Shown piece by piece: positions 1 through 62,609 of a stretch of 64,000 nucleotides of DNA (positions within the stretch are counted from its first letter, which is position 1; each line of letters starts with the position of its first letter). Position numbers and translations under genes: made by a program. Source of the DNA: Podospora anserina (Eukaryota); the NCBI GenBank assembly GCA_017654855.1, contig CM030336.1, positions 2,418,001 through 2,482,000 of the forward strand, given 5' to 3'. The notes below the pieces were generated by a model. The model saw only the letters and a program-made list of their open reading frames with translations, ran no database searches and had not been told where the DNA came from.

Positions 1-368
1 GTTGGGGCCCTCAGGTCTGTTGCGCAGCTGCAAGACATGGAGCCCCGCCCACCAAAAACGTCCCAGCCGGCAATCCCTGGCCGGTATCCCCTATCGACCG
101 CGGGGTAGCAGTCAAATTTACTGGAGCCCCTCCACCACCGCCCACCACCACGCCGTTCTGCTTCCCCGTCCCTTGTTCTCGTCTGAAGTTGCTCCCGGAC
201 CGTGACTCACGAATTGGCTGACAGGTCCCTTATTTCGGTTTCAGGGGACGCAAAATATTCCCATTTAGGCCACTACCATCGCCCTCGACCGAATCCCTTT
301 CCAAAGCCACCTACAGGCCAACACCAAACACACCCCGTCCACATCGACAGTCTCGGAGAATCGTCACC

Positions 369-2837
369 ATGGAGAAGGTCGAAAAGGTCACCGAAGCCCT
401 CAAGAAGGCCACAATCGGCGGCGATGAGAAGAAGAAGGCCAAGAAGGAGAAGAAGGCCGCCCCTGCCGCCGATGCCAGCGCCGGCCCCCTCGAGATGAAC
501 CCCCCTCCATCCTTCATCCAGGAGCGTATCGACCTGTTCGACCGCCTGTACAAGGAACAGCAGGAGGAAATCGCCAGTAGACCTCGCGAGGACATCACAA
601 TCACAATGCCAGATGGCACCATCAAGGTCGGCAAATCGTACGAGACCACCCCCGCCGAAATTGCCAAGGGCATCTCCAACAGCCTCTTCAAGCGCACTGT
701 TGTTGCGAGAATCGATGGCGAGACATTGTGGGATCTCGAGCGTCCCCTTGAGAAGAGCTGCAAGCTTGAGCTTCTGGACTTCAACGACGACCAGGGCAAG
801 TTTGTCTTCTGGCATTCCAGCGCACATATTCTTGGCGAGGCCTGCGAGCGGAGGTTCGGTTGCTCGCTGTGCATTGGTCCCCCAGTGGACAATGGTTTCT
901 ACTACGAAATGGCTCTGCCAGATGGTGCCGCTGTTCAGTCCACAGACTGGGCGCCACTTGAGAACATTGTCAGCAAGGTGGTCAAGGAGAAGCAGCCTTT
1001 CCAGAGACTCGAGATGAGCAAGGAGGACCTGCTCAAGATGTTTGCCTACAACAAGTACAAGCAGCACATCATCAAGGACAAGATTGAGGATGGCACCAAG
1101 ACCACAGTTTACAGGAACGGCCCCTTGATCGATTTGTGCAGAGGCCCCCACGTCCCCGACACTGGCAGAATCGAGGCTTTTGCCATCATGAAGAACTCGT
1201 CTTCTTACTTCCTCGGTGATGCGAACAACGACTCCCTTCAGAGAATCTACGGTGTATCTTTTCCCGACAAGAAGCAAATGGCTGCCCATAAGAAGTTTCT
1301 GGAGGAGGCCGCTAAGCGCGACCACCGCTTGATTGGCAAGCAGCAAGAGTTGTTCTATTTTGAGGAGTGCTCGCCCGGTTCGGCCATGTGGCTGCCCCAC
1401 GGTATGCGCATCCACAATGCGATTATGGATTACATCAAGGAGGAGTACTGGGCCCGTGGCTACGACGAGGTCATGACTCCCAATATGTTTAACGTGTCTC
1501 TTTGGGAGCAATCTGGCCACTTGGCGCATTACAAGGAGGACATGTTCCTTCTTGACGTGGACAAGGAGCAGTTCGGTCTCAAGCCCATGAACTGCCCGGC
1601 CCACGCCATGATGTTCCGTCACAGAGAGCGCAGTCACAAGGAACTTCCCCTCCGCCTTGCCGATTTCGGTGTCCTCCACCGTAACGAAGCCAGCGGTGCG
1701 CTCAGCGGTCTCACCAGAGTAAGAAGATTCCAGCAGGATGATGCCCACATCTTCTGTCGCGAGGACCAGATCAAGGAGGAAGTTGCCGATCTCTTCGACT
1801 TCATGCGCAAGTTCTACGGTATCCTCGGCCTCACATTCAAGCTCAAGCTTTCTACTCGCCCAGAAAAGTTCCTTGGTGAGATCGAGACATGGGACCGCGC
1901 CGAGTCTCGTCTTAAGGAGGCTCTTGACGAGTTTGCTGCCTCTGACAAGGATGGTGGTGTCTCTTGGGAGCTCAACCCTGGTGATGGTGCCTTCTACGGC
2001 CCCAAGATTGATATCGCTGTGCTGGACTGCCTCAACAGACCGTGGCAGTGCGCCACCATCCAGCTTGACTTCCAGCAGCCCCAGAACTTCTCCCTCGAGT
2101 ACCAGACTGGCGAGGCTGTGCACAAGGGTGAGACCAAGGCTGCTGTTGAGGAGCCTGCTCCTCCTGCTCCTGAGGCCGAGGCTGAGAAGGACAAGGATGG
2201 CAAGGAGAAGAAGAAGCCTCTTCTTATCAAGAAGGCTCTTTCTCCTGGCTGTGCCCGCCCTGTCATGATCCACCGTGCCATGGCTGGCAGTATCGAGCGC
2301 TTCACTGCCATTTTGGCTGAGCACTTTGCCGGCAAGTGGCCATTCTGGATGTCGCCTCGCCAGGTTATCGTTATCCCCGTTGGCATGGGCTTCTTGGATT
2401 ACGCTAAGGAGGTCGCTGCCCTGCTGAAGAAGGAGAAGTTTTATGCCGGTATGTTGTTCCTTCACACCCCTATTTTCGACATCAATTCTAACTGTGTGAT
2501 TCCAAGATGTCGACAGCTCCGGCAACACCCTCCAGAAGAAGATTCGCAACGGCCAGCTCGCCCAATGTAAGTTACAACAATCCAAGCGCATTTATTCTCG
2601 AAGAGAAACTAACATGGTCTTTTAGACAACTTCGTCTTCGTGGTCGGCGACGACGAGATGCGCAACCGCAAGGTCAACATCCGCTATCGCGACGACACCT
2701 CCACCCAGGCGAGAGATGTGCCTTTTGACTTGGACGAGGCCATCCAGAAGCTCAGGCAGCTCAAGTCTAACAGGGGCATGTACAACCCATTCCCTCATGT
2801 GGCCGAGGCGAAGAAGGAGGAGGAGGTCAAGGCTTAG
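369..2837 (+). CDS. THS1: Threonyl-tRNA synthetase, cytoplasmic (3 exons: 369-2448, 2507-2566, 2626-2837)
   Basis: TGS domain; editing-domain motifs [10 protein letters not shown] and DLCRGPHV; class II core [41 protein letters not shown] introns 2449-2506 and 2567-2625 restore the anticodon-binding domain ([28 protein letters not shown]). Confidence 0.97.
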
Positions 2838-3565: not shown

Positions 3566-4491
3566 CTAAGGCTTAGGGATATGAATCGTCTTGCTGCACA
3601 TCAAACACCCATGAATAGCAAACATGAGCGCCACCGGGTGAAACTCTAGGAGGGTACCCGTGAACAAAGTGCCCAGAGGCAACGCCTCGTGAATCCAGCC
3701 CTTAGAGATCCAATACGCCATCACCGCGTCGGTAGCCAACGTTGTAGGGATGGGGGTTCCCTCAAAGTACTTTGCCTTTCCTGTGGCGTCCTTGGGGATG
3801 GCGGCGGCAGTGACGTTGAACCGGGCCAGTCTCGTCAGGCCGCACAAGACAAAGAAGCCGAGGAGGAGGTGGTCGACTGGTGTGCGGAGGCCCATAGCGA
3901 AGGCGGCTGAGGCTGGGGCTACGCCGAACGAGATCTTGCAAGACACAAAGCTTGTCAGTAAAAGAGAAAGGTGGGCTGCTGGGAGATGGGGGGAAGACAT
4001 ACAAGATCGGCAAGCGAATCCAGCTCCTGCCCCATCATGCTGCTCTTTTTCCTCCACCGCGCAACTTTACCGTCGAAAAAGTCAAAGAACAACCCCAGAG
4101 GCAGGAACCCCAGCGCCCAGTAGAGCGTCGAGTGGGCTTCCGTGTTCAGCGCCGAGGCGAGGGGGCCCGTGGTGATGCAGTACCGCAGAGAGGAAAAGAC
4201 GGAGAGGATGCCGCAGAGGCCGTTGAGCTCGGTGATGAGGTCGGCCAGGTGGAGGGCGCGAACGAGGGAGAAGTGGCCTACATCGGACGAGAGGAGGAGG
4301 TCTTGCTTGTTGTCTTTTACTGTTGGTGGGTGGGGCGTTAGTTTCACTGGGTGGTGGTTTGGGACAGAAAAGCTCAGAAAATAGCGGGGGAGGGGGAGAA
4401 TGAACATACGCGCTGGCGACTTGGAGACGGTGGCATCGTTGCTGGAGGAGGCGGCAGACCCGGAGGCCGCGACGCTTGTTCTCTTTGACAT
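3566..4491 (-). CDS. CHO1: CDP-diacylglycerol--serine O-phosphatidyltransferase (exons 4491-4410, 4319-4003, 3934-3566)
   Basis: CDP-alcohol phosphotransferase motif [34 protein letters not shown]; also RLARFNV and YFEGTPIP. Introns 4409-4320 and 4002-3935 have GTATGT donors. Confidence 0.95.
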
Positions 4492-5469
4492 GATGGTGTT
4501 GGTTTGAATATATGCGCTGTCGGCTTTGGTTCTGTGGGAGGAGAGCAGGGTAGGTATCGTAAAAAGAGAGAGGTTGGTATGTAGTATGTCTGTGATGAAG
4601 GTGTGCTGCTGCTCCAAACAAAAGCGCAATACAAACAAGGCCACGATGGATTGCGCAGCGCAGTGTATGTACTGGATCAAGGGAATTGCGTCAGGGTCGG
4701 CGGGTCGGAGGTAGGTTGTTTTGTTGGCTCTCTCTCACAAGCAACAAGCAGGAACGGCGCAGGCGGACGCTTGAGCGGGAGTTGGTTTTGGCACAGACAG
4801 TGGGGACTTTCCGCCCGAATGGTCTGAACCGTGAACGGTGCGCTTGACCGCCTGCCACATACGGTCTAGCATCTGCCAGAAGGTCTGGTTTTTATGCGCC
4901 CAGGACGGGATGCCGTCACTTTTCTGCTGGGCTAAAGTGTGTTGCATAATACGTCATGGAAACTATTCACATTCTGCTGGCACACACATCGTGGACTTTT
5001 TTTTTTCCTTTTTTTTCATTTACAACATTTATGTCTATATAAATTCTCGCTATCAAGACAGTTACTTTTTTTTTTTATTCTTTTTCTTGTTCTGCAAAAT
5101 ATCAAACCAATCAGTCACAGTCGGATTCTTGAGAAGGAAAGATGGAAGCTCAATCTCTCCCTGCGTCCCTGGCCTGAACTGATCCAGGGCAACGAACGTC
5201 GTATCCATATTCAGGTGTTGCCAAAGTTGATACAGAAGCGGCCTCAAGTCTCCGGTCAAGTCGGCCAACCATCTCCGCCTCTTCCGTCGTATTTCTTCGT
5301 CGTCAAGTCCCGGCGACCTGGCCCTCTTCTTGCTTGTATTGTTTTCTCCATTATCATCATCATCATCCCAACGATAACCGTCCTCGAATTCACAGCACTC
5401 GTCATCTTCATACTCCCCATCCTCATACTCCACATTTTCCGGGTATCTCTCCGCTTCCTGCAAGATCAA

Positions 5470-6747
5470 CTAATTCTCGACGAGCTCGTCAAGGGCACCA
5501 GACTCGCTCAACCTTTTTATCCACTCGTGAATGGCCAGTCCGAAATCGTTTTGGCGGCTGGCAGCCCTATTGTCGCTGTCGGTTTGGGTGTTCCCGCAGA
5601 GGGCCATGAGGTTGCACTCGGTTTCCCGCCCTCTCATGTACTCTTCCAGAGTCGACTGAATGTCTATTAACCAGTTGTCGGGATTCTCAATGTCGCAGAT
5701 GTATCCCGGTTCCGTGTCCAAGCCATCAAAAAGCCAGATGCCGTTACCGATGGGCACAAAAGCAACAAAATGATAGGCTGCACTAGAAGCACCACTACTG
5801 CGTCTTCTATTAGCAGATGCTGCCTTTCCCCTTGCCCTCTTGGCCGCCCGGGCCCGCTTGTTCCGCATGGCGTCTTGTTCAAGCTCCAGAACAGCATTTA
5901 GAAGGTCAAGGCGGCTGTTGTGCATATTGTGGGCAGCTCGTATAAAGGTGCTGGTGGCGACCTTGTTGCCTCGGAACGAGGGGCTCAAGTCCTTGGACTG
6001 CTCCTTGAACTCGCTCAGCTTTTCCCCGAGAGCAAGATCTTTGGCGTTCATGACAATGTTCAGGAGGGCAATGGTCCCGCACGCATTCGTAGCCGTCTGC
6101 CTGGAGAACCACAAATCTGATTTGTCGTCGGGCTGACGCGGGAGCCAAACCTGCCGCATACTTCTGTAACTTTGAAGGAATACCAACCCATAAACCGGAG
6201 ACCTGTTGGAGGGGCTGTTAGCAAGGTGAACCATCCGCAGGAGTTGAGAATCATACTCAAAAGTGGCAGCGAGCGTCTCGAGGTCCAGCGGTTCTCTTAT
6301 CTCTGCGTCCTCAACACCCAGCTTTCTTAAGATGTCGGTGAAGAGCTTGGGATCCGACACCACCTCTGCCCAACCATCCCACTCTTCCAATTCGTTTTCC
6401 TTCCATGGTTCGAGCGACGCCGCGATGATGTCTTTCGTCACGTGCTCGGGCAGTTCGGGCTCAGGTTCACTGTCAGGATCAGAGTCGGGCCCAGATTGCT
6501 GCCCCTCATCCTGCTCTGCCTCAGGCTCCGGCTCATCAAGTGCTGGGTTATTTGCCTTCCGCTTTCTAGTCTTCGCAGGCGCCTGCTCTTGTTCGGTATC
6601 ACCAGGATAGCTGGGCTTCTTAGTCGCGCGACCCGAGCGACGAGGAGCGAAATCCTTAATATCCTCTGCGTTGGTGACGTGTTTTAGAGAGGAGGAGTCC
6701 TCTGGTGCATAAAATGGATGCTTGTTCGGTGGTTTTCTCGGACCCAT
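5470..6747 (-). CDS. Ubiquitin C-terminal hydrolase, peptidase C12 family (UCH37/BAP1-like); exons 6747-6257, 6202-5470
   Basis: WAEVVSDPKLFTDILRKLGV, VYGLVFL, catalytic Q/C in FSRQTATNACGTIALLNIVMN, His in AYHFVAFVP, Asp in LFDGL. A 54-nt intron at 6256-6203 has GTATGA, GCTAAC and CAG signals. First ATG at 6747. Confidence 0.88.
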   Translation of the reverse strand: MGPRKPPNKHPFYAPEDSSSLKHVTNAEDIKDFAPRRSGRATKKPSYPGDTEQEQAPAKTRKRKANNPALDEPEPEAEQDEGQQSGPDSDPDSEPEPELPEHVTKDIIAASLEPWKENELEEWDGWAEVVSDPKLFTDILRKLGVEDAEIREPLDLETLAATFEYDSQLLRMVHLANSPSNRSPVYGLVFLQSYRSMRQVWLPRQPDDKSDLWFSRQTATNACGTIALLNIVMNAKDLALGEKLSEFKEQSKDLSPSFRGNKVATSTFIRAAHNMHNSRLDLLNAVLELEQDAMRNKRARAAKRARGKAASANRRRSSGASSAAYHFVAFVPIGNGIWLFDGLDTEPGYICDIENPDNWLIDIQSTLEEYMRGRETECNLMALCGNTQTDSDNRAASRQNDFGLAIHEWIKRLSESGALDELVEN

Positions 6748-7698: not shown

Positions 7699-10600
7699 AT
7701 GACCGGCGTCGGTGCCTTTCCTCAGACCCCCGTGGCACCCCGAGTAGGGCGTGCCCGGCCAACTCCCTTCAACAACAATCTTCCGCCAACCCTCCAACAC
7801 CAGCCCCGACGACCACCGGCAAACCCCAATCCGCTGCCCGTGGCTCCCCAAGCAGGCGGCGCACCCCCCACTGCCAACCCTCCCGTCATTCCATTAAACA
7901 TCCTCGATGCCCCGACACAGCGTCTGTACGCGGTTGCCGTCTATGCTGGGCTCTTGGCATGGAAGCTCTACGACTGGGCCGGCGTGGTGGAGGAGGACAC
8001 CGAGTCCTTGTGGCTGTTTCTCAAATGGGTTGCCATAGATTGCGCCTTCTTGTTCGGCCTGCCAGAGCTTAGGATACCATGGCTGGAACTATCGCAGCCC
8101 TTCGTTATATCGGCCTTCTTTATTCACGCCTTCATTGACTGGTCCTTGATGTTCAACCTTGGGGTATGTTGTGTCCGTCCTCCAGGGAGGTGTTTTGGTA
8201 CTGACTTTGGGTCTTGAACAGTTTGGTTGGCAGGGATGGATCATCGGAATTGTCAAGATGTTTTATGATCGCGAACTGGCTATTTCTGAGCACAACGTCA
8301 AGCTTTCCAGCATTATTCACAACCACTCGCTCATCATGGGCAAGCAAATCATCAACATTCTCCCCGAGGGCTCAGCGGTGCTCAACCCCGAACGACACCC
8401 GCTCTGCTTGAGCAGTGACCAGAAGACCGCGCTCATCCCCATGTTTTTCAACGCTACCATTCCGGTCGAAGTCGAGCTGCTTCGCACCGATCTCGAAACG
8501 GGTCATCAAGAGTCCATCAAGCTCGGCAGAGTGCATCTTAGGGATATCGAACGAAAGGCCAAGAAGAATAGCGACCTTGATGATATGCAGTCTGTGGTCC
8601 ACTTTGAATATCCTGCCAAGAAGCCTGGCGCTTACCAACTCGGAAAAGTTCTGGACGAGTACAAGTTGGAGGTGCAGCGTCCTGGTCCCCCAACCTTTGT
8701 TGTGCCTTGCCCAAAGGCTTGGGTTGGGCCCACGACAACCCCCGGAAGGTGTCTCGCTGATCTCTCGGATCTGACTCTTCAGGTGGAAGGTACTCCGCCC
8801 CTCAAGATCACTTACAGCCGTGCCATCAATGGCAAGGATGTCAGCTTTCACTTTCAGAGCTTGCAGCCCGAGGGATTCATGAGTCCTCTCGGCGCCATAC
8901 GGCCCACGAGTCTGGTGCAGGATGACGATGAAGACATCTCCTGGGCCAGGCCCCAGCGCGTTCCTGTCAGTGTCAACGAGTCCATGTACGCCAGCGGAAA
9001 GTGGCAGTACTCTGTTGACGAGGTCCAGGACGGATTTGGGAACGTTGTTAAGTACATTTCCCCTTCGGAAGATCCAGAGGGCAAAGCCAAGCCCAAGGAA
9101 CTGGTCCAGGACTTCCTCGTCAAAGAACGCCCAATCCTTAAACTTGATGGGTGTGATCTGAGGAACCCGTTGAGGGCTGCCAGGGGTGACTCCAAGGAGC
9201 TGCCGGTCAAGTTTGGGATTGGCGGTACGCCTGATTCAACAGCGCACAGTCTGAGCTGGCTTTTCTCGCCCATAGACACCCTTACAGATACCGGAGATCA
9301 CGGAGATGTGGTTTCGGTTGGCACCTTCAATGCTAAAAACGCCAGGGACAAACCAAGGATCTCTGCTCCCGGTCTTTACACTCTCAAGTCTGTATCTTCC
9401 GGTGGATGTGAGGGTGAAGTGCGGGAGCCGTCCTCCTGCTTGCTTTTGAACCCTCTCGAACCAAAACTTTCATTGCGTTCAGAAGAAATTCCAGACACAT
9501 GTGCTGGCAACTCGATCGGTCTCCAGGTGGACCTTCACTTGATTGGCACCCCACCGTTCATCCTTCGATACGATATCATTGAAAACGGAAAAACGAGACA
9601 CGCGGACCCGGTTAAGATCCCTGGCCTGCGCCACCAGATGGAGTTGATCCCCAGCGTTTCCGGGCACCACAAGTACATCTTCACTCATATCAGTGACGAT
9701 GTCTACAAGGGAGTCAAACTTTCGGGCCCAGAATTCACCCTGGAGCAGGATGTCAAGCCGCAGGCGAGCGCTATTCTCCAGCAGACCATCGGTAAAAAGG
9801 CTTGCTTGGGAGACCACGTGACGGCGGACGTCATGCTCCTGGGAGACGCACCCTTCACTTTGGAATGGGAAATCATCCACGATGGAAAGAGAAAGGCCCA
9901 CAAGGCTACCAACATTGAAGGGAATGAGTACCAAATCTCGACGCCACCTTTGACCCAGGGTGGCGAGTACACTCTGGCATTGAGCAGCGTGCAGGACAAG
10001 AGAGGCTGCCGCAACTTTTTGAAGCAAGAGCTGAAGATCTCGGTACGTCGCCAAAGCCCAAGGGCTGCGTTTGGCCAGATTGAGCACAAGCGCAAGATCA
10101 CGGGCGTCGAGGGCTCGCCCCTTAGCCTGCCTTTGAGGCTCACTGGTGAGGGACCCTGGAAGGTCTCGTACATCAAGCTCAACGACGACGCGGCTACGCG
10201 CCAAGAGAGGACTGTCAGAAACGACAATGGTTATCTTTCGGTCCGGGAACGTGGTACCTACCAGCTTGTGGATGTTTGGGACAACCAATGCCATGGTGTT
10301 ATTGACCCCAAGACCTCCACATTTGAGGTCGACTGGTTCTCTCGCCCCGACATGTCTGTCCTGCTCTCTCACGGCGTTCAGCGAACGGAGACTGGATACC
10401 GCCTGGAAGATGTCTGCGAAGGTGATGTGTCTGGTTTCGAGGTGGGCATGAAGGGTGAGTCGATACTCCATCACTGTGGTAATTTGATCAACTGTTAACT
10501 TGTCATAGGAACTCCCCCATTCTCGATTGAGTACGAGATTCGCCACAAGCCCCCTCAAGGATCAGCGTCTACTGCCAAGAAGAAGTTTGATGTCGCCTTG

Positions 10601-11626
10601 AGAAAGGAATCAATCCAAGCCGACACATCCAAGGCCGGCACATACACGTACAAGTTCACGGCGTTGGAAGACCACCTGTACAACAGCGATCGCAACTTCA
10701 AGCCCGTGCTCGTAGAGCAGAAGGTGAACAGCAAGCCCACGGCGGCATTTGCCAAACCTGGACAAACCTTCAAGTATTGCAAATCCGAGCAGGGTGCGGA
10801 AGAAGGAATCCCTGTCGTTCTCTCAGGTGTGCCTCCATTTTCTCTGGAGGTCGAGATCAAGCACCAAAGCGCCGCCCTCCCCGAGATTTACCGGACCCCC
10901 GTCATCAACTCGGACACGTACGAAATCCAGATCCCTCGGCATCAGCTTCGCCTTGGTACCCAGAACATCCGCATCCGCGATGTCAAGGATGGCAGCGGCT
11001 GCCACTCGGCCACAGCCAACATTGGCGGTCCTTCGATCCAGGTGCAGCTCTTTGAGGCGCCCACCATCTACCCGCTCGAGACACGCACCGACTACTGCGT
11101 GGGTGAGCGTATCTCGTACACCTTGTCAGGCAGCCCACCATTCGACGTCTGGTATACCTTTGACGGCGTCGAGCGCAAAGCCAAGTCAACCACGACTAAC
11201 TTCCGTCGCGTGGCCGAGTCGCCTGGTGAGTTTGTCATCACGACCATTTCAGACAAGTCGTCCGAGTGCAAGGCGCCTGTCAATGTGGCCAAGACGATCC
11301 ACCCCATGCCGGCCGTCAAGATCAGCAGGGGCAAGAACGCTCGCGTTGATATCCACGAAGGTGGAGAGGTGGAGATTCTGTTCGAGTTCTGGGGCACGCC
11401 TCCCTTTGAGTTTACGTATACTCGTAGCACGAACGCGAAGAAGGGACAGAAGAGTGTTGTGTTGGAGACGAGGCACGATATTAGCCACGAGCACAGCAAG
11501 GTCATCCGGGCGAGCCAGGAGGGCACGTATGAGGTTGTGGCCATCAAGGATAAGTTTTGCGCTTTTTCGACGATGGGGGGAGATGAGAAGGGTGATAGGA
11601 AGGGACAGAAGAAGTTGGGGTATTGA
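7699..11626 (+). CDS. POM152: Nucleoporin Pom152 (exons 7699-8163, 8222-10454, 10509-11626)
   Basis: N-terminal [16 protein letters not shown] and [13 protein letters not shown], a TM segment, then repeated Ig-like units with GxPPF motifs. Canonical introns at 8164-8221 and 10455-10508. Confidence 0.93.
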
Positions 11627-27093: not shown

Positions 27094-30000
27094 CTAAGCG
27101 CTCATCTCTCGCTCTTCCCGGATAGACGTCATTTCCATGCCGCTGCCACCAAGACCGCTGCCGCCCTCGAGCATCGGCTGGCTCTGCGGCGGTCCTCCTC
27201 CTCCGTTTTCGCTTTTGATGTCGGGGGAGGCGGATGAGGTGGCCCCGGTTTTGCTGCTGCCGTTTCCACCGGCCGTCGGGGTGGGAAACCCACTGCTGCC
27301 GTTGTCACTCGGGGTAAGCACGTTGGTGGGAGTCGCTGTCGTTGACTTGCTTCCAGGCTCGGTAGGCGGCGTGTCTGTCGTGGCTGGTTTGGTCGAGTTA
27401 CTGTTGACCTCCCGCTGCAGCGGAGAGGCATGGGAGGGGGAGTTGCTCTTCTTGCTCTGCGCGTCTCCGCCACGGTTTGAGTTGCGAGGGGAAACTCTGC
27501 CAGTCTGTGCATCACGCTTGTCAGTGGTTAGCAATTTGTTGAAGCTGGGCGCTTGGTCAGGGCTCGACATACCTGTTTGGCCCATCTTAGACCGCAGCTG
27601 TTGCAGAGATCTCTCTGCCCGCTCGGTCCTCTCCGCCACTCGGGCGTGTTGCGTGTGTGGCAATTGGCACAGTCTCTAACCATGTTGCCGCCGCCCTTTC
27701 TCCTCTTACGCTTCTTCCTGTTGGACAGCAGCTGAGCCAGCTCTTCGGCTAATAAGCGGTTGACCTTTTCCATTTGTCGCAGCTCGTACTGCCAGCTGGT
27801 ACATCTCGTGGTCTTGAGCTCATCAAAGATGTTGTCATCCGATGCAAGAGCGATATCTTGAGTTCCACCTATTAGCTGACCTGCAGGTTGAGAGATAAGG
27901 GCACCCTCAGTGCTGATCGTCTTGGTGTGACCCATCACGATGCCGGTCATTTGTTGTCCATCGTCGGATACGCTCGCCACCGACGCACCAGTCTTGCCAG
28001 CAGGAGCAATCGCGCGAGAAGAGGCCTTGAGTAGTTTCGTCTGAGCCAGCAAAAATGTAGGCTTCTGACCCTCTTCGGCATCCCCAGGGTAGAAGGTCGT
28101 GTGCGCTTGCAAAACCTGGCCTCGCTTGTTCTGAATCTCGTGCTTGCAGCTGGCGATTTTGCCTCTCCTCGACTTTTCAATAGTCCGACCAAACTCCACC
28201 CGAGACTCTTTCCGCATGAGATCTTGCATGCTGGTTCCTTCGAGATCTTTGCGCTCGAGATCCAACAACGAGCGCACATTTGACGCAACGTACAAGAACA
28301 TACCCGAGGTTGAGACCTTGGACCAGATCTCGCTGTCGCCGATACCTCCATGTTGATCCAGGTTCCGTTTTGATAGCGCAAAGATTGGACGCTTTCTGCC
28401 CACCAGAATGATACACTTGCGGCCCTTGCCCTGCTCGGAGAACAGAGTGCCGTGGCTCTCGAACCAGGTGTAGCCGCTATTTTTCCGTCGTATCCTGAAT
28501 ACGATGTTGACTGGTACATTTGCCTGTGCCTCCTTGAGCTCTCGCGTAACGGGAACAATGTCTGACGGGTGGCAGATGGATGCCAGCGAGTTTCCCATCA
28601 AGTCGTTGGTGTCGTACTCGAGAATCTTCTTGCACGACGGTGATAAGTAAAGGAACAGGCCCTTAAGTGAGAGCACATGCACAACGTCATCCGCATTCTC
28701 CAGCAACATCTTGTCCCATGACTGCCTGTGCCAATCTGACACGGCCCCCTTGGGGTTGAACTGCTGCAAAAGAGAAGATACGTCATCGATGGCCAGCGTC
28801 TGGCCGTTTTCGGGCTCCCATTGCGTCGAGCTTGGAGGAGTCCAGATGTATTGGCCAATATCGCTGTGGACGTAATTGACGTGCATGGCACCCCCTGACT
28901 CCTGTCCTGATATCGCATCGGGGCACTCGACCAGGTCGATCTGAAAGCCGATAAAGTACCGTATCGTGTTGGGGTCATCCCACGGGATGGGAATCATGGT
29001 GAGGAGGTTCAGGAAGGGCTTGCCGCCCTTCCGATAGTTGATAAGACTTTGCTGAATCTCGCGGCCTTCAGCAATGGCGTTCTTGAGCTTGAAGACGGCG
29101 TGGTTCTCGACAAACTCTCGCTTTGTGCCCGCCTCGACCTTACCAGTGGGACTTTGGAGGAAGCGGCAGTTTTGTCCCACAATCTCGTGGCGAACGTAGC
29201 CCGTCAGGTTCTGGAAGTTATCCGACACGTAAATGATAGGGCAGTCTTGTAACTCAACATCGCACACGACGAAAGCACAAGACATGTCCACAGCACCAAT
29301 TTGAAGCTGTGCGTTTTTCCGCGTTGCCACGTACCACAGGGCCCGGAGCATGTCAAATCCGCTCTTGGAATATATGCTCTTTTCTTTGGAAGCATGTAGG
29401 CTGTCTGGGAGTGCCGGACCAACCGTGGTGGCTGGTGTTTGAGGGGTCGACACTGTCGCTACAGCACTGGGTTGAGCAGCACCCATCCCGGACAAGGTGT
29501 GACTGGTTCCTGACGCTGGCGAGCGGTAGGCTGTAGTGCCTGAAATCTCGCGTGTTAATGGCGGTGGCATGCTAGGCTGGAATTGGTTCATCTGAGATTC
29601 CAACGTCAGATTATGCGGTCTCTGCTGAGGGCGATTGCCAAATGCGTCTTCCACGCCCGACATGTCGTCGCTCGTCAAAGTCAAAGGGGTGGTACCCATT
29701 CCCATGTCCATTGAAAAGTCAGGCGTAACCGAATCCATAGTCGTGGGAGGGTACTGGTGACCGAGGCCGGGCGAGTTAAAGAGGTTGAGTGAGGCAGGGT
29801 CGGTTCCCATCGCCTCCATGTTTAGACTTGAAAAGGCCATCATGTTGCCCATAATGTCGGGTGAAAGCGAAGCGAAGTCGTTTTGGTCCGACATGGCCAT
29901 GAGTCCAGGCTGTGAATAGGGGCCAGAGCTCCCTGGCATGCTCGTCGGCATAGCTCCGAACCCCGCCATTTGAGGCGAATTCATATTTCCAAACTGGAAG

Positions 30001-30278
30001 TCCTGGTAATGGTCCGGGCTCCCAAAATCCATCATGGACAGGCGGCGATCCGTATCGGTTGTGAGCATGGCGCCGCCCTGAAAGGACTGAGGTATGCTTC
30101 TCCTCCTCCGTTGAAGCTCATTATTGTTCTGACGGACAATCTCGTCCAGTGAGTCCGACACACCGGACAGGCCCGTCGTACTGATCATGCCCAGGTTCCG
30201 GCCGGCGTTTTGCTGCTGACCTCGGCGCTGAGCCTCCTCCTGGGCGAGCTGAGTCGTGTAAAAATTGTTGTTGTTCAT
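27094..30278 (-). CDS. wc-1: White collar-1 blue-light receptor / GATA transcription factor (exons 30278-27573, 27504-27094)
   Basis: LOV domain with photoactive Cys (GQNCRFLQ) and INYRKGGKPFLNLLTMIP; two further PAS domains; NLS RKKRKRRK; GATA finger CANCHTRNTPEWRRGPSGQRDLCNSCGLRWAKQ. Intron 27572-27505. Start MNNNNFY. Confidence 0.96.
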
Positions 30279-32326
30279 GGCGACCACGTTAGTATCGTTG
30301 CGCGCGCGATGGAGTGTGCGTATCTGAACGTGGTGCGGGTGGTGGTGCGTGTGTGTGCGTGTGTGTGACCGGGAAGCCAAGTCTGTCCCTCAACAATCAG
30401 GTAACCTAGCTATCATTGCCCCATCGAAGGACGGGGCGGCCTTGACGTCTCTCTATCGGACCAGATGGGCGGCGGCATCGAACTACTGCCAAGGGAGGGG
30501 GGGCGGGGGGGGCGGCGGCAGCTACCGGGGAGAGTGACCCGAGGCGGTCTGGATTTGGCGTAGGGCTCCGAAACGCAAGCAACGACGATAGAGAGAGAAA
30601 AATACGGTAGTGGCGGTCTATTTGTCAACTATCAGCTCCCGGACTCCCCGACGTTCTCATTGAGCCCAACGAGCATATGCCATCTGCGGCAGCACTATGA
30701 CAGAGGGGGAAGGGGAAAAGAAACAAAAAAGCAAAGTTGGCAGTGATGGTGGAGGAATATGCGGACGGTAGAGATCGAACGTTACACACCCGTTTTCGAG
30801 ATGCCCAAAGCAGGGTTTAGGTATAGAGACAGGGACAAGGAGAGGATGCGGACGAGAATGGGAAATGCTGGGTTAAGGTAAGGTAAGTCGACGTGGAGAC
30901 AGACAGGCAGAAGCAGATGGACGATGTCGTCCGAGGTTTGGCGCCGTTGTTGCTGCTGGTTGCGTGTGAAAGCGGTCCGCCGGGGCGTTGGTGCCAGGTC
31001 CCACGACACGCGAGGCGAGGCAGCTATTCGACGACGAGAGTGTGCGATGCAGATGGGCGGGCGGCGGCAGGCGGACGAGGACGTCGGACGTCGTCGGGAT
31101 GCGGTTGATGATAAAGGTGCAGTAGTGAGTGGAAAGTTGACTCTTTGCAGCGCACAACGGGGTTAGAGTCCCCGGATGTTCCTCCCCCCCGGTTCCCGTC
31201 CTTCCTTAAACCCACCCGCTGGCAGCATTCCTAAGCGGGCAGAGCGGGGCCACCCAGGGCACACCGGCGGCCGTGGGGATTCACAAGTCCCCGTCCGAGC
31301 CCAATCAGACCATTCAGATGCTGCCCAGAGAGAGGGGATAACTGGAGAACACGCCACTCAAACCCCCTTACGTAAGCCTGCCGGAGAGACACCCCACTCT
31401 TGTGTAGCCCGTCCGTCTCAAGGGCTTCATTGGCTGAATGAAACAATGGATGCGCTTTTCAGAGTTGCTGATGGAAGATGCTCAGCATTTCCATCCATCA
31501 TCCCATTCCCCGACATATGCAATGCCAGTCGCCCATAGGTCATAGGTCCCCATGCTCAGTCTCCGGCTCCCCGCGCCGCAGCAGACAATGCCATGCCGCT
31601 GTGGCAAATGCCATCCCAATGATCCCCATCCCAATCTGTCATCTCACATTTCTCCATCATCCCAAGCCACACGCCCATACCCATCCGGCCCATGGTCCGT
31701 CCATATGTCGACAGTTCGATTGATCTAGATCCATTGCCGCCACTCTTCAAAACTGTCTCTCTCGCTTTCTCTCGGCCGGGATGCAATCCGACCTACACAA
31801 TTCCCGTGTCAGCTTCCATGTCCGGCGTTGGCGAACCCCTATTGTGTCCGCTTTCGAGCCCGATGACGTGTGAAGTCATACAAAGCCGTTCGACCCTGCC
31901 AAGGCATTGCGGGCTGAGAAGGACCCTTCATCACTTGCTCTGCTGGGACTCTGCCTGTTGGCCGAGAGACATGTGCATATACGATTACGCCCAAAGGGAC
32001 CTAGGAATATATAACTGTTTTTTTTTGTTCGCTTCATGTTGATTCGCTCTGAGACATGTCGAAGCGGAAGCTTTACCTGGCTAATATGACATGTAACTCG
32101 TACACGCCAATGACCGATCGGACGAACAAACATGGTATCATGCCCGTGAACTCCAAAAAACTTCCTCCTCCGTCCCTGCCCCTTTTCTCAATCCCAACTA
32201 TCCGACCCTCTCCTTCAGGGTCCCAAACTCCTATCCGCGGCCTGCCCTTACACGCGTGTCTTTGCCAAAGGACAGCTTCACTCGCAGGTACTGAGGTATC
32301 GCGTCCATCACTACCGGGCTTGGGAA

Positions 32327-35300
32327 CTAACCGAAATGGGCGCGGATGGTTTGCTGAGCCTCGGGTGAGAACTGAGAGAGCAGTGGTGATGGGTCAGTGC
32401 CGGTGCCCTCCAAGAGAAGCTTGGTCGCTGCCACTACACGAGCCGCATTCTGCCCGCTCAGCGTCTCTCCCTCGAGAGCCTGTGCAACGTAGACGAAAAT
32501 CTGTGCGGCCCGCCCGGGCGCGGCGATGGAAGCATGTTGCCTACAGGAAGCTGTTAGTCCAGAGTACCTTGTGAATCACATGACTCATGGGAAAAGCGGT
32601 AACTTACTTGCTAATCAAGTCGGCGAGATAGAGATAGCCATATGGCGCTGCTTCCTCGTCGTTGCAGATGGGGAGGTAATTTATCCACTGATCAATGATT
32701 TGGTTGGCGTTTGGCACTGCCGAGGCGTTGTAGTGCAGGATCTTCGCAATGGCAGCGCATGCGTTCTCGGTGGCGTAGACATTGTCTTCGTTCCGCGCAT
32801 CAGGGACCTGCATGAGCTGGAACAAGTACTGCAGTGTTCCGGCCAGGAACGTGGCCCACTGCTCACCACCATGACGAGCAGCCACACCGATGCCATAAGC
32901 CGCAGCCTGGCGGATAGCCGGCGAGGGGTCCTGGCAACCACGCACGAGCGCCTCGCTAATCATAGGAGCATAGTTGCCACTGCGGGCACCGCAGTACTCA
33001 AGGACGTCGTCCATAATGCAAAGGCCCCATTGACGCTGCGTTGGGTCATCCGACTTGAGGAAACCTTGATATGTGTCGGCGAGACGCTCAAAGTAGGGGA
33101 GGAAGCTCTCGCCGTGGTGCTTGAAGACGCAGTGGAAGGCCTTGTTCATATCCGAGAGAAGAGTCTGGTCGTCCTCGATGGCCATCAAGAGTTCCTCAGC
33201 GTCATCCTCGGCATCGTCAGTACCACCAGCGCGGTGCTCCTCTTCGCGCTGAGCAACACGGTCCTTGTAGTCATCAAGGGTAGAAGTGACTGAATCGATA
33301 AACTTGCCCATGCGCTCAGGGCTAAGGCAGGGCCCACCGATAACCTCGACAGACTCGTAAAAGCACTGATACATCTCCGCCAAGGTATCGACAGCGGGCT
33401 CAGCGGAAAGAACTTCAAGGAGCTTGTCAATGGTCTTGTCCCACAAAAGCCTGAGCTGGTCCGAGGCGGGTCCATAGGCTTTCTGGACGCAGCTCAGAAG
33501 CTGTGGCACGAGCTTGGCAGAAACATATCTGACAGGATCATGGAAGAAGAATGCCAGGCCGGGGAGAGCGATCTTCTCCATGATCTGATCGGCATAGGGC
33601 GCAAACTCATCCTCAAGAACCTGGGCGTAAACAACCAGGAGCTCAATGGCCATATGTTTGTCCTCCATCGAGCTAGTTCTGATTCCAATCGTCTTTCCAC
33701 GAAGAGGCACCAGCTCCCAGCCCTCTTCTTGCTGGAACTTCTCAACCTGATCCTCGTCGTCGAGAAGCTGAATGTCAGCCTTGGCGCTGGCCATCTCGAG
33801 AAGAGGAGGCATGACCTTGGGCAGACAAGGGAGGAAATTTTTGCCCATGACGCGGCACATTCTACCCCAGCAGTGCATAAGATACTGGGCCTGAGGGTCA
33901 TCGGCCTCGGTAACATTGTCCTGGATGGATCCGAGAAGTTGGACAAGCATGGTGGCGTCGTTGCCCAAGCGCTGCTGGCCAACAGCGAGAGCAATGAGAG
34001 TCGCGCACTCCATAGCCTTTGCGCGAAGGAGGCGGTACTCCTTGTCGTTCTCGCGCTGCAATACGCTAACCAACATGGGCATCAGAGTATCGTAATATCT
34101 GGCAAACGCCTGCTCGGCCGCGTCGGCAATAGTGGCGATGGTCGAGAGTGCTTGCTCCTGCACGTACCGCTTCTCGTTCTGGAGGAGCTCATAGAGCTTG
34201 GTGAGGAGGCCGTCCAGGTACGGCTCCAAGACGCTCTTCTCGGCCTCTTCGCAAAAGTTGACCAAAGCGGCCGCAGCGTGCGACTTGACTCTAGCCTCGG
34301 GCGAGTCCAAGACTGGCACGATAGCGGTCAGAACAACATCGTAAAATTCCTGTTGCATCTTTGGCGCAAAGTCAGTGCTCATCTGGCCCAGAGCATTGCA
34401 CCCGGCCCATCGGACACGAGGATGGGGGTCCTTCAGGGCCGGAACAACGAGCTTCAAAACCTGCTCGAGTTCCCCAATCATCTGGTCGCGACAGCCTTCC
34501 GAGATGGCAGAAATGGCCATGAGAGCCGCGTGCCTGTCCCTCCAAGCAGGGGACTGCATCATGCGTGGGAGCCAGGCAAAGGTGGGCTGCAATACGACCA
34601 TGCCTCCCATCTTGTTCGCCAAGCGGTCCATGCAGTGCTCTCCAGCTACGTGGTTGTTGTCACTTTCCTGGTCTTCAAGATCGTCGGCCCCAAGCCAATC
34701 AGCAGCATCATCGTCATCCTCGCCAATGTCGGTCATCAAACTGAGGCACTGAGTGATCATATCCTCGGTGTACTTGGGATCTTTTCTGCACATGGATGGG
34801 GCGTAATCAGCGAAAGTAGCCATGAGCTCCAATGCATTCTGTCTGCAAAGGTCACTAAGCTCCTTGTCTTGGATCACGGCGATGGAGAACTGGACGAGTC
34901 CGCTGAAGTTTGGCTTGAACATCTTGGGCGAGCTTTCGGCGAGGTCGATGAGGGCCACCAAACCTTTGCTCAAGTCGTCGGAATCTTGAGCTTGCTTGAT
35001 TGGTGGCAGAATGTTGAGAATTTCGGGAAGGAGACCAAAGTACTTGGCCTGGTTCTTCCTGCTGAGGTTGCGGAAGAAGGAAGCGAAGGCCTCCATGGCG
35101 GCAAGGCGAACCTATTCATGTCAGTACAACAAACCCTCAACTATTTTCCAAACAGGACTTTCATACTGAAACTGATTCGTCCTTGAAGGCCTGGGCGAAC
35201 ACGCCAGCTACCTGCTCCTCATGCTGTCTCTCAATAATGCCGGGGGTAGTTGTGAACACTCGGAAGGCGGTTTCGCGCTTGCCAGCATCAGGGGCCTGGC

Positions 35301-44733: not shown

Positions 44734-46851
44734 ATGGACTCCTCGCGAACACGGGGAGCATCTTTCATGGCTCCGCGCCGCGTCTTTACGGCACCAGTCC
44801 ACCAGCCTGCGGTAGCGCCCCCGCGGCCATCTTCCTCCTCCGCTTCGCAACCCACCAGCGGTCTCGTCGATACTCTTTACGACCATCCTAATGTGAAAAT
44901 CGTTTCCTTCTCGGCAGGATCCCAGTTCCTTGCCATTGGCTCCAAAGGCACGGGTCCCGACATTGAGCCTGGCTCGCTATCTTGGTCCTCACAGTTAGAG
45001 CGGACCATTGCAGTCGGTACGCGAGACACAACATCTGCCGTGGCAACTGAACTCTAATTCCTCATGTTTACAGGACCTTTCCGCATTTACCGCGCCCCTG
45101 GATCAGTCGCATTCCTGAGCTGCGGCTCTGCATTACAACCCATTTTGAAGAAGAGTCAGGTCTGGTGCGTGGACGAAGAATCCAGCAAGTTCGTACTACA
45201 GATACGACGCCCCCAGTATTGGCGGATTGAAGTACCAGTGAAGGATCCCGAGGACCAGCGACGAGCCGAAGTGTTGCGAGAGGTCTTTGACCAGATTCTG
45301 CAGTTTGAAAAGACTCCATGTCCTTTCGCGAGGTCTTTCACCGTTGACCTTCCAGAAAGCGCTCCTGTCAAGTTGAAGCCATGGACACCAGCGCGGAGAT
45401 CCAGTGCCTGCCTCCCTGTGCGACCATCTACGCCAGTCGAGATTGCGCATATTCATCGGGGTCCACCACGAGGGTCGATTTGCCTTGGCGACCTGTCATT
45501 GAGTGAACAAGGCAAATACTTGGATTCGACACTGGGAGAAAACCCAAGAGAACACAAGGCAAAATCCCAGGCTCATGAGGGCTCGCCTGTAGGAGAGCCG
45601 AGCGGAAATGCGTTGCGCCCATCACCCCTTAAGATTAAGAAGACTGAAGAAAAGGGGCCTGTCACCCCTCCACAGCTCACAGTGGTCACGCCGCCCCCTT
45701 CAAATCCCAAAAAGACGAGGATTCCACGAGAAGTATCACCCAAGAGTGCCAGCTTTCAGTCACCAGAAAATTCTCAGGATTCCTTTCGCAGTCCGGATTC
45801 ATGGGCTTCAAACTCTCTACCTTTGTCCCCACCCCTGTCCAGCCCAGGGTCCCCTCGAAGCTCTCTACCCTTCAGAACTAGCCTCCAGAACTCATGCCTT
45901 GATACCCCTACAACACCCGTTGCAGCACCTAGCAACAACCTTGCCACAGCCGCCAAGGCATCACAGTCATGGAGTATCTCCACCTCCGAATCCGGAAGGA
46001 CGGAGAACAGCGAGGAAGCCACTCTATCCTCCTTCATCTCTGAATTGGAATGCTCCCCAAAGTCCAAGGCCCCAGCGCCAAGACAACAGTCTATTCCTTC
46101 CATTATCCACTCGGTCCCAGAAGAAGCCATCGAAGACGAGCCAGAGTACGAGTCCTTCCCCACAGCGTTCACCACACCAACTCCTACCATTTCCATCTCG
46201 CCATCTCCTTCCTCGACGACGATCACCACACCCACCCAACAGCAACGCCGTCCGGGTATCCGCCGGGCTACTACTTCATCTTCGCTATCCCCCGACCGTA
46301 GGGCGTTGTCTCCTCTCCCCCCTGCAGCGGACCTCTTCACCCCACGCAGCACACTCACATCTTCCCCACCTTCTAACCGCCAGATGCGCAGTCTGCCGAT
46401 GATGGTGGTGCAAAAGACGTGCGAGATTCTGATGTCACCTCCCTCTCACCTCATCAGTCTGATGCTGAAGATTGCGGCGAGGATCTTGGCAGGGGAGTGG
46501 AAGGGGTTGATATTTGGGTGGGGGGAGAAGGGGGAGAGGTTGGAAGTGGAGTGGGATTGGAGTGATGACGACATCAGTCCTCAGCAGCAGCAGAGAAAGA
46601 AGACGACGGGGACAAGGGCGAGGGGGTGGTCGACGCTTACGGTTAATAATAGTAATGGTAATAATGCGAATGAGAGGGTGGATGACTGGTGGTTGAAGAG
46701 GAAGAAGAGTAGGGATCGGATGGCGGGGACTTTCCCGGAGAGTGATGATGATGAGGAGGAGGGGGTTGATCCTCTCGAGGTTAAGAACAGGAGGGTGAAG
46801 GCGTTGAGTGGTGGGGAGGATGAGGATGCGATGAGCTCGGGGGTGGATTAG
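44734..46851 (+). CDS. INP1: Inheritance of peroxisomes protein 1 (exons 44734-45016, 45074-46851)
   Basis: Inp1-domain-like LYDHPNVKIVSF, ERTIAVGPFRIYRAPGSVAFLSCGSALQPILKKSQVWCVD, FVLQIRRPQYWRIE; long Ser/Pro-rich tail; intron 45017-45073. Confidence 0.82.
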
Positions 46852-49682: not shown

Positions 49683-52600
49683 ATGCCCACTTTGCGCGAA
49701 CGTCCCAGCAGAGGCGATATCTCGCCCGCCAAGAAGAGCTCCGGAAACAGCTCCCAATTCTCACCCAGCACAAGCAAATCCGCCAGATCCTCCCTCCGAG
49801 AGAGTGTTCCCAGGGACGCCATCGAAGTCCGAGAAACGATAGAAGCCAAGGGCGACCAGGAAGAAGACGTCGACATGGCCTACGCCGACGCGCCGACGCG
49901 CCCAAGCATCAAGGGAGGCCCCGATGCCGACACCGAAATGGTTGATGCCGGAGCTGCCAGCATTGACGCGAAACCAGATGTCGATGCAGATGGCGACGTA
50001 GATGCTGATGGGGAGCCTGATGCCGACGGCGAGCCAGACGAACAGGCGCAAGAAGACCAGGAAGAATCAGACGAAGAGAAGGATATGCTCCAGCTCATCA
50101 GAGAAACATCCGAATACTTGTGTGGTTACACAATCAAGGTTGATGGAGAGTAAGTCTTATATCACTTGTCATGCGATGCGCCGCGATGCTGATTGGATCG
50201 CAACCAAAAAACAGAGACCACGAGATTGCCTCGGGGTTTCAGCGCCTCGTCAACAAGCGCAGCCTCCCAGACTATTTTGAAGTCATCAAAGAGCCAATGG
50301 CTTTTAGTACCATAAGAGTGAGTTGCCGTGGCTTACCCTGCTCCATCCTCCCAACGAGAAAAACGAGGGGCGGCTTGCTGACCTAACCGCATGGCTGCAG
50401 GGCAAGCTTAACAAAAGAACCTATACCTCGTTCAAAGAGTTCGTGCATGACGTGACGCGCATATGCCACAATGCGCAGGTGTACAACAGGCCCTCTGCTC
50501 CCATCTTTTCCGATGCTGGCCGTCTGCTGGAAGTGTTCAAGGAGAAGCTTGCAGAGCTGGTCAAGGACGGTGATATTACTGCAGAGGAAGCTGTGCTGCC
50601 GGACCTTGGACCACTGCCAGAGTTTGAAGATTCCCCTCCCCCTGAAGACGACGAAGAGGAAGAGCAGGATGATGAGGAAGAGGAAGAAGATGAGGAAGAA
50701 GAGGATGACGATTCGGACGACGAAGGCAGGCGGCGTCGCTCAAGAAGAGGTGGGCGTCGGGCGAGGAGAGGCGCAGACAACGACGATGATCCTCACAAAA
50801 AGCGTGGCAGACCGCCCAAGGTCTTGACGCCTCTGGAGGCGCGAACCCAGTCGCTTCTGAAGGGACTGCGGAGGTTCAAGAGCGACGATGGCCAGCTGCG
50901 AATTTTGTCGTTCGAGAGGCTTCCTGACAAGGCTGACATGCCCGACTATTATGCCTCGATTCGAAACCCCATTGCGCTCGACACCATCAAGAAGAAGCAC
51001 AAGCGCAAAAAGTACACCACCATCGACCAGGTCCTGCAGGATCTAGAGTTGATGTTTGGCAACGCTATGCAGTTCAACGAGGAGGGGAGCCAGGTTCATG
51101 AAGACGCTACCGAGTTGCTGAAGCAGGCGCGTCTTCTTACTGAAGAAGAGAAGGCCAAGCCTGACGATGAGTTTCGTGATGAGGATGGAAAGCTACCACT
51201 ATCACATATCGAGCACAAAGGAGAGGTCTGGAGAGTTGGTAAGTTGCCCCCCTTGCCACCGCTGGGTGAAGGAAGACGCATAGATGCATACTGACTCCAA
51301 TTCGGTTGAAGGCGACTGGGTCCATATTCGTAATGCGAATGACTTGCAAAAACCAATCGTTGCCCAGCTCTACCGGCTCTGGTCTGACGCTTCTGGTCAA
51401 AAGTGGGTGAATGCGTGCTGGTACTACCGGCCGGAGCAGACAGTTCATCGCTTTGACAAGCATTTTTATGAGAACGAGGTAGTCAAGACGGGGCAGTACC
51501 GTGACCACCCCATTGAAGATGTCGAGGATCGCTGCTTCGTCATGTTCATCACGCGGTACCCCAGAGGTCGGCCGCGTGGGCTGCCTCGGGACAAGGCTGT
51601 GTATCTGTGTGAGGCGCGCTACAACGAGGAAAAGTTCAAGTTTAACAAGATCAAGACTTGGACCAGCTGTCTGCCAGACGAGGTGCGCGATCGGGACTAT
51701 GAAATGGACCTGTTTGAGCAGCCACGGGTGCTGAGAAAGGTTCCCAGTCCCATCAAGCACCTCTTGCAAGCTGATGCTAAAGAGACCGACGACCTTCCCA
51801 AGCCCACCTGGAGGAGCATGAACGCGCCTCCCCTAATTGGAGCCGTCCACCGCCGGCCGCGCGAGCCAAATGTAAGTCTGGCTCCCTGTTTCTTTCCTTC
51901 CCTGAGTGTTTGTCAGGCAAGTGTCTGTTCGCTGCAGCCGGCTTTTACGGTTTGCTGAATTTTTCAACCCCACACTCTTCTCTTACCTCAGGTCGCTCTG
52001 GACAACTTGCCTCCCTTCCTTCATTTTGCCCTTTGTTGCCTAAGGCACAGCAAGCACACACACACACACCACATCAGGCGCCTATCTCATCTCGTCTTCT
52101 CATAACCTCATCCACTCTTCCCTTCATTACCTACTCCATCCTGCCACAACCACAACCACAACCACAATCACAATCACAACCACGACCAACCCGCTTGTTC
52201 CTGTCCGACCATAAGCTGACATTTAGCCCAAAGGAGTCGCCTCCCCCCGCTCCGAATCCCTTGCTGCACACAGCGGTCGCACCTGTGCCGCTGGCCATCG
52301 GACCTCCTCGTGTCGCCATGAAGGTCGAACATGGTGTCGTGGGAGCACCGCCCTATCAGCACCATGCTGCCGTCGCGCCTGCGCCCATCCACTCGCCGGC
52401 TTCTCACTATCGCATGCAGCACTTTGTGCCACAACAGCCACCGCCCTCGGTCCCCAGTCCTCACCCGGCACCGCTCCATCTCCAACCCCAGCCCCAGCAG
52501 CCGATGCCAATGCACGTGCCGCCCCATCCTGGTATGGGACAGCAAATGCAGCCAAGCCCACACTACCCACCCCATGGGTACCCACAACAGTACGGCCCGC

Positions 52601-61862: not shown

Positions 61863-62609
61863 TGTTGTTGGGGTAAAAAAAAAAAAGAAATATGCTTCTC
61901 CTTTGGTTGGGAGTTACCCTCTTGTGAGAGTGAGTGTGTTGTCTGGTTTATGAGCTGGTATGGCTTATCGTCCTTGAGATGTGGTTGGTGGTGGTGGTGG
62001 TGATGGTGAGGGGGAGACTTGAGAGACTTGGTAAAACTGATATCCCAATCTATGGATCCTGGCAAGTCACCTGAAGAACTGTAAACTGTAAAAAGCAGTA
62101 AATGTTATCTCCTTGAATAGACGCCTCAAACTGAGCCTCTTTGTTTATCCCGCCATAATGATGACCGCGGGGTTAGTTAGATTCGGGTTAGCGGGGCGCA
62201 ATGGACCCTGCCAAGGCTCACCTTCCCGCCTCTGCCGGCATGTGAAGATGACCACATGACGGAGGTTTGTAAGTATCACCACATGACAGTCTGATAAACC
62301 ATAAATAATATCCTCCTGAACTCAGCAATGCTCCCGACTAAAAATGGGTATAAAACCGCCTTCTCAACCGTACTCAACCACGGTTTAGTACCTTCGCAAG
62401 AAAATGATTACAAGTACACATATCGTGATAAACTGAAACCCTTTAACCTTTCAACCTTTCCACCCGAAAAATAAATCAATGAAATCCGCTTATGCCATGG
62501 CCCAACCCACCAACAATGCTTGCTCTCATCGGAGTCAAAACAGAATATTCCGCTAACGTATACCCTCATCCCCACCTCTCCCTCTATTCTTTCCCCGTCT
62601 TCCCCAACA

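Follow-up and report, generated by a model that had tools for sequence, protein, structure and literature searches.

A coding-like 135-codon frame behind the stop codon of a UCH37/BAP1-like deubiquitinase gene in Podospora anserina, a candidate for stop-loss editing

Why should a single stop codon at the end of a deubiquitinase gene be followed by 135 more open codons that look like protein? The question is raised by a gene on the minus strand of contig CM030336.1 of Podospora anserina (assembly GCA_017654855.1). The gene lies between 2,418,001 and 2,482,000 of the forward strand. This stretch of 64,000 nucleotides (nt) is the window, and all positions given here are positions in it. The deubiquitinase ends in ...DELVEN, followed by a TAG at 5472-5470. 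The original prediction was that the same frame stays open for 135 further codons to a TAA at 5064-5062, with no ATG at its start, and that adenosine-to-inosine (A-to-I) editing of the stop yields a nucleus-targeted long isoform. The open frame was confirmed from the sequence. The peptide stretches quoted from it and the context AAT-TAG-TTG were also all found there.

The 135 codons are statistically coding-like and, in the reading that we favor, real coding-type sequence. They nearly fill the 3' untranslated region (3'UTR) of the deubiquitinase mRNA. We tentatively infer that this extension is translated only after recoding of the UAG, most plausibly by A-to-I stop-loss editing in the sexual stage.

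The deubiquitinase gene and its transcript

The protein matches PF01088 over profile positions 1-210 of 211 (E 8.2e-38, 130.8 bits, cut-off 27). The best solved relatives of its catalytic domain are UCHL5 (E 1.6e-18), Calypso (E 3.5e-17), and BAP1 (E 6.8e-13). The earlier assignment to the UCH37/BAP1-like deubiquitinases is borne out by these matches. All 15 aligned sequences have Q217, C223, H326, and D341 (numbered on P0002, the translation without splicing). We take them to be the catalytic Gln, Cys, His, and Asp of the family. The last C-terminal helix carries the conserved pattern HEW..L....L, in which H407, E408, W409, L413, and L419 are invariant in the alignment.

The window protein shares the catalytic domain and the conserved C-terminal helix with UCH37/UCHL5 and BAP1/Calypso. 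Unlike them, its fungal family has a long N-terminal region with the basic motifs RRSGR and KRKA. This region is common to all isoforms. Residues R36, R37, S38, R40, and R63 are invariant in it, and K62 is nearly so. Human UCH37 and BAP1 proteins carry a basic tail behind the C-terminal helix. The basic stretch of the extension, KKRAR...RRKRRR, resembles that tail in position. In the window gene, unlike UCH37 and BAP1, this stretch sits behind a stop codon.

No Pfam C-terminal UCH domain was detected in the deubiquitinase at E values up to 1, a further difference from UCH37 and BAP1. The Podosporaceae members lack the middle part of this region. The window protein and its four closest relatives are shorter by a segment of about 100 residues that links the core to the last helix (alignment columns about 540-690). 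Most other aligned Sordariales orthologues keep this segment; the more distant P0009 also lacks it. We read the loss as a clade-specific shortening of a UCH37-like C-terminal domain.

The stretch was matched in 17 sequencing runs that are RNA by guess and in 6 DNA-type runs, and the DNA-type runs contain all of its sampled words. Four RNA-type runs from three studies were compared as contigs; their RNA status is a guess joined to the presence of spliced joints. A 54-nt intron (6254-6201) is spliced GT..AG on the minus strand in four of four runs, so the four runs represent minus-strand mRNA. The original gene outline had the stop and the open frame at the right coordinates and had missed this in-frame intron. 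With the intron removed, the mature protein has 407 amino acids (aa) if the TAG is a stop and 543 aa if it is read as Trp, not 425 or 561.

In all four runs, RNA contigs pass through the TAG and on to the end of the 135-codon frame. They are collinear with the genome and show no joint there. Transcripts ending before the extension had been named as a reason to drop the prediction; the contigs of all four runs span 5472-5062. The contigs start at 7000 or beyond, except at 6882 in run X2 and at 6313 in run X5, where a second contig continues upstream. The TAA of the frame lies 15-114 nt before the contig ends, so the frame fills nearly the whole 3'UTR. In run X5, the contigs break at 6284-6318, and two of them have loose ends that match nothing in the stretch. 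Either an unusual 5' structure of an alternative transcript or a chimeric contig might account for this break.

The frame might be expressed separately, either as a small open reading frame (ORF) of its own or through a rare alternative splice that removes the TAG. We give this hardly any credence. The frame is coding-like, and contigs can miss rare isoforms. Its sole ATG is codon 87, however, and no ATG precedes that. There are 114 possible in-frame GT..AG introns spanning the TAG; none combines a consensus-like donor, a branch site, a YAG acceptor, and more than 9 codons left. No joint removing the TAG is present in the contigs of the four RNA-type runs, which cannot show rare isoforms. Splicing out of the TAG was rejected on these two grounds. 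The only other long frame, on the plus strand, has no Met in 244 codons. This antisense frame (4936-5670) was rejected as a gene; its translation is hydrophobic and of low complexity, and its codon score is lower. We regard it as shadowing the sense frame.

Codon statistics of the open frame

Under an independent-base model, the probability of at least 135 open codons is 0.00015-0.003, depending on composition. The earlier chance estimate of about 0.002 falls within this range. Stop-to-stop frames of at least 135 codons make up 97 of 3,948 in the window, real exons included. The antisense codon-complement frame is likewise without stops, as it is in only 26 of 5,000 simulated noncoding sequences that are open by chance. 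For a single gene, the open frame is more than would readily arise by chance. A few such frames would still be expected by chance across a genome of about 10,000 genes (our estimate).

Codon usage was scored with a table trained on nine Pfam-backed ORFs of the window. The extension has a log-odds score of 0.204 in frame. Read in the two other sense frames it scores -0.12 and -0.16, and its antisense shadow frame scores 0.111. The deubiquitinase exons score 0.154 and 0.264 in sense and 0.08 and 0.07 in antisense, and the pattern of the extension matches theirs. Among 36 true coding windows, its score ranks at the 28th percentile. The noncoding sequences open by chance have a mean of -0.109 and a standard deviation of 0.072, and 0 of 5,000 simulations reach 0.204 (z = 4.35). 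Two further noncoding nulls conditioned on an open frame also fail to reach it (0 of 3,000 each). In noncoding-like DNA of the window, only 2 of 504 frame-windows reach the score that the extension had under an earlier training set.

Sliding windows of 20 codons show the coding signal at both ends of the frame. It is weak or negative only over codons 51-90. The nonrepetitive part, codons 67-127, scores 0.232 in frame versus -0.11 and -0.04 out of frame. The GC fraction by codon position is.53/.33/.56 in the extension and.58/.44/.61 in the gene. Both tandem repeats in the extension have units that are multiples of three, 15 and 3 nt. In the AlphaFold model, residues 435-480 (unspliced numbering) are disordered, and five helices are predicted within 483-560, the longest at 542-560.

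Position of the stop and recoding of the UAG

Under the favored reading, the enzyme of vegetative cells would be the 407-aa form, whose end coincides with that of its orthologues. In the sexual stage, the ADAT-type A-to-I editing of Sordariomycetes would recode the UAG to UIG, read as UGG (Trp). Translation of edited transcripts would then run on to 543 aa, adding an acidic linker, a basic stretch, and a helix-prone tail to the enzyme. Judging from the stop-loss tails that have been published, this tail may alter the stability or the partners of the enzyme rather than simply confer nuclear import; we regard changed stability or partners and nuclear import as equally likely roles.

Published values given here are those in excerpts of the cited papers. 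Almost 9% of UAG/UAA triplets are edited, and stop-loss editing is reported for 323-403 Fusarium graminearum genes (PMC4817773, PMC13123824). In the Sordariales, A-to-I editing is documented in Sordaria, Neurospora, and Chaetomium (PMC13123824; PMC5381528). For DBF2, editing has been reported from eight Sordariomycetes, these three genera among them (PMC13123824). Fungal A-to-I sites have U at -1 in 85.7% of cases and favor A or G at +1, and 62.4% of known sites lie in hairpin loops (PMC4817773), a preference and not an absolute requirement. Literature searches on Podospora showed no editing-site catalogue for the genus among the titles and abstract beginnings listed. One Podospora study, as far as its excerpt goes, is microarray-based (bioRxiv 10.1101/2024.12.09.627484).

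The window stop is a UAG with U at -1 and -2 and G at +1, which fits the reported preferences. It shares the UAG and the U at -1 with the stop-loss-edited FgDBF2, FgMOB1, and FgCDC14 and with hundreds of genes in F. graminearum and N. crassa. Like such genes, it has an in-frame continuation on the mRNA, a Sordariales host, and a partly disordered tail (PMC13123824, PMC4817773, PMC11156358). Its tail has 135 codons, compared with 24, 11, and 27 aa in the three studied genes (PMC13123824). Those three tails and six others that were tested are disordered and destabilize the protein (PMC13123824). Unlike the studied genes, the window gene is only a candidate for editing, its tail has coding-like codon statistics, and its A lies outside predicted hairpin loops.

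The following results weigh against the favored reading. Positions -3, +2, and +3 around A 5471 miss weaker reported preferences. This A is in a predicted hairpin loop in only 5% (0.055, with 30 nt on each side) to 19% (50 nt on each side) of sampled structures. In the minimum-energy fold it is base-paired, and shuffled sequences fold as stably as the local one (z = 0.04). The contigs of the four RNA-type runs carry only A at 5471; this absence of A>G carries little weight, since rare variants are lost in contigs and the runs come from unspecified tissues and stages. The synonymous-only codon usage of the extension is weak; at -0.066 it lies at the lowest end of the range for coding sequence, for which the training set has a mean of 0.115 and a minimum of -0.071. 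Exon 1 of the gene is similar in this respect, at -0.039. The AlphaFold confidence of the tail is low, with a predicted local distance difference test score of 31-63 and averages of 44-63 for ten-residue blocks of the helical part.

To the same side belong the orthologues. The closest named relatives of the deubiquitinase are from Cercophora samala, Triangularia setosa, Triangularia verruculosa, and Apiosordaria backusii (54-59% identity); other Sordariales relatives have about 35-45% identity. The four closest orthologues, all Podosporaceae, end 0-2 residues from the TAG column (...IES, ...VDS, ...VRD, and ...VHTYV). Most of the more distant aligned Sordariales end 4-7 residues after it, and two have longer, unrelated tails. 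Because the orthologue proteins stop at or near this column, their alignment gives no evidence that the frame behind it is conserved, a check proposed earlier. No fused form bearing the extension was matched among database proteins of 308-982 aa.

Searches with the extension also count against it. A HMMER scan of 1.84 billion protein representatives gave two matches, neither of them a relative. In metagenome contigs, 371 pattern matches were obtained and 0 were confirmed. The ESM Atlas gave no usable match. The Atlas recognition score of the extension is 1313; a score of 2300 is reached by 91 of 100 known-family proteins and by 9 of 100 shuffled or reversed ones. Pfam gave only a sub-threshold match to PBP1_TM (E 0.066).

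Both HMMER matches were rejected as relatives. P0045 (55 aa, 87% identity) corresponds to minus strand 5290-5451 of the window with every C read as T. It has a GTG start and a CGA turned to TGA, and it is identical, letter for letter, to the translation of the C-to-T-converted window, which makes it an artefact of such conversion. P0046 is an unrelated repeat protein that matches over 28 residues. ORFs predicted from C-to-T-converted assemblies are thus present in public protein collections and, at about 87% identity, can be mistaken for diverged homologues.

The A-to-I stop-loss switch of the original prediction therefore stands in part. The extension is on the mature mRNA and is coding-like, the UAG context fits, and the host is one of the Sordariales; no A>G is seen in the contigs, the A is rarely in a predicted hairpin loop, and there is no homologue.

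The main rival, a strong one, is that the protein always ends at the TAG and that an ordinary, untranslated 3'UTR follows. Its open, codon-like frame would be due to chance and to biased, purine-rich, repeat-prone sequence. We place this possibility on the unlikely side. The orthologue ends, the missing homologue, the weak synonymous usage, and the absence of an edited base from the RNA contigs all speak for it. The low-complexity parts (the 15-nt repeat, the GAT run, and the A-rich end with AATAAA) are naturally stop-poor. A chance of about 0.0002-0.003 per gene, taken over the estimated 10,000 genes, gives a few such frames, and this one was picked as unusual. Against it, the codon score is far beyond the open-frame-conditioned nulls and is equaled by only the 2 noncoding-like frame-windows. 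The nonrepetitive codons 67-127 score well only in frame, and an antisense frame that is also stop-free is rare in the null sequences. If the frame is untranslated, it is a caution that codon-usage statistics can flag a 3'UTR as coding.

The stop is at its ancestral position. The short protein is the ancestral and complete form, because the orthologues end at or near the TAG column. By the orthologue alignment, the TAG is not premature inside a conserved protein. In premature-stop-correction (PSC) genes, such as PUK1, the full-length protein depends on UAG-to-UGG editing. Like them, the window gene has a long, coding-like frame behind a TAG, with no splicing in this part of the mRNA. The stop of a PSC gene falls inside a conserved protein; in the window gene, the part before the stop is a complete ancestral protein and the part behind it is without a homologue. 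The window gene was rejected as a PSC gene, since its orthologues end at the stop column or within 7 residues of it (the two longer, unrelated tails aside) and the extension has no homologue.

The extension could instead be a fossil. A former sense codon and a longer protein would have been followed by a recent nonsense mutation, leaving sequence that has not yet decayed and is not recoded. This would account for the coding-like statistics without editing. C-terminal tails in the family vary between genera, and the relative P0016 has its own tail of roughly 70 aa. The stop, however, is at the same column as in four related genera, and its loss and regain at one codon would be needed. No fused form is found among the database proteins of 308-982 aa. 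The six DNA-type runs (two studies; perhaps all one strain) contain all sampled words and show no sign of a sense-codon allele. We consider a fossil tail distinctly unlikely.

Fungi are known to make readthrough extensions. Here a near-cognate tRNA could decode the UAG during translation without any editing, which would give a minor long isoform at all stages. This route requires the same anatomy as the editing model. The context UAG-UUG-AUC is not known to fit a readthrough-promoting motif, and no stable structure lies downstream of the TAG. The basal level would usually be too low to maintain 135 codons. This explanation is very improbable.

Recoding of the UAG in the sexual stage remains our favored reading. 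A stronger form of it is doubtful to us. In this form, a new protein segment would have been born behind an editable stop, as a selection-shaped, lineage-specific tail of 135 residues that is present only in a fruiting-body isoform, a case of RNA-gated de novo coding.

The nuclear targeting claimed for the long isoform is weakened. The motifs RRSGR and KRKA are already present in the N-terminus of every isoform, and the contribution of the tail may thus be something other than nuclear import. The bipartite nuclear localization signal of the extension, KKRA-(10)-RRKRRR, is a pattern read by eye.

Stop-loss editing itself is known for hundreds of fungal genes; in the published excerpts, function was tested for only a few short tails of 11-27 residues. 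If the favored reading is true, the window gene has an unusually long stop-loss tail and a mechanism that is already known. It would stand out by a coding-type tail, an ancestral protein that is complete without that tail, and the lack of a relative elsewhere. It would be a test case for whether editing-gated translation lets 3'UTRs evolve into new protein segments. It would also be one for whether a UCH37/BAP1-type deubiquitinase gains a stage-specific fruiting-body form.

A 5471 is among the least loop-like of the nine UAGs in the transcript. The UAGs at 5784, 5796, 5808, and 6567 (minus strand), all in the coding region, have hairpin-loop probabilities of 0.91-1.0. By sequence and predicted structure preference, these four are better editing candidates than the stop. 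Each would change an amino acid if edited.

Features of the window and neighboring genes

Table 1. Coordinates of the deubiquitinase gene, of the frame behind its stop, and of other features of the window
Feature	Position	Strand	Evidence or remark
UCH (Peptidase_C12) gene, exon 1	6255..6747	-	ATG 6747-6745; translation, orthologue starts (MGPK...), RNA contig cover
Intron, GT..AG, 54 nt, in frame, stop-free	6201..6254	-	54-nt joint in 4 of 4 runs; the 18 encoded residues are absent from orthologues
Exon 2, coding part: catalytic core and C-terminal helix ...HEWIKRLSESGALDELVEN	5473..6200	-	PF01088; solved relatives UCHL5, Calypso, BAP1
TAG stop; A 5471 is the candidate editing site, context AAU-UAG-UUG	5470..5472	-	Sequence; orthologue ends; RNA contigs
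In-frame open frame, 135 codons: acidic tract, basic KKRAR...RRKRRR, helix-prone tail, lysine run	5065..5469	-	Translation; codon score
15-nt tandem repeat, 2.2 copies, encoding EYEDG EYEDD	5403..5435	-	Repeat analysis; unit is a multiple of three
GAT trinucleotide run, 6.3 copies (D5 tract)	5349..5367	-	Repeat analysis
AATAAA hexamer in the lysine-run codons, 10 nt before the TAA; putative poly(A) signal	5074..5079	-	Read from sequence
TAA closing the open frame, then in-frame CTG TCT TGA TAG	5050..5064	-	Sequence; TAA is 5064-5062
Rest of 3'UTR	4948..5061	-	RNA contigs end at 4948, 5047, 5033, 4970 (contig ends are not proof of transcript ends)
CDP-alcohol phosphatidyltransferase, next gene downstream, same strand	3955..4781	-	PF01066 E 1.7e-17; ATG near 4491; intron 4409-4320
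Other Pfam-named genes: threonyl-tRNA synthetase, importin-beta-family, Inp1 (peroxisome inheritance), bromodomain, mitochondrial carrier, PH-domain	222-2567, 32607-35111, 45058-46848, 50308-51291, 60855-61913, 62613-63998

The CDP-alcohol phosphatidyltransferase gene is on RNA contigs apart from the deubiquitinase contig in all four runs. These contigs begin at 4771-4781 in two runs and at 4690-4698 in the other two, and there is no cover over 4782-4947. Two relatives have gene models that fuse the deubiquitinase and phosphatidyltransferase genes, so nothing lies between the two genes there.

An ORF of 953 codons at 27531-30389 (minus strand) encodes PAS, PAS_3, and GATA zinc-finger domains. 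It presumably is a photoreceptor of the white-collar-1 type. It has a 132-codon in-frame open stretch behind its TAA. This stretch may be a further exon past an intron or another long post-stop frame.

A Pom152-type nucleoporin is encoded at 8150-11623 (plus strand). It contains two in-frame ORFs of 782 and 375 codons, split by a single TAA at 10496-10498. Judged from the sequence, this TAA is probably within an intron of the gene. The long ORFs at 276-2591 (minus strand), 9482-10561 (minus strand), and 33294-35183 (plus strand) are antisense shadows of real genes.

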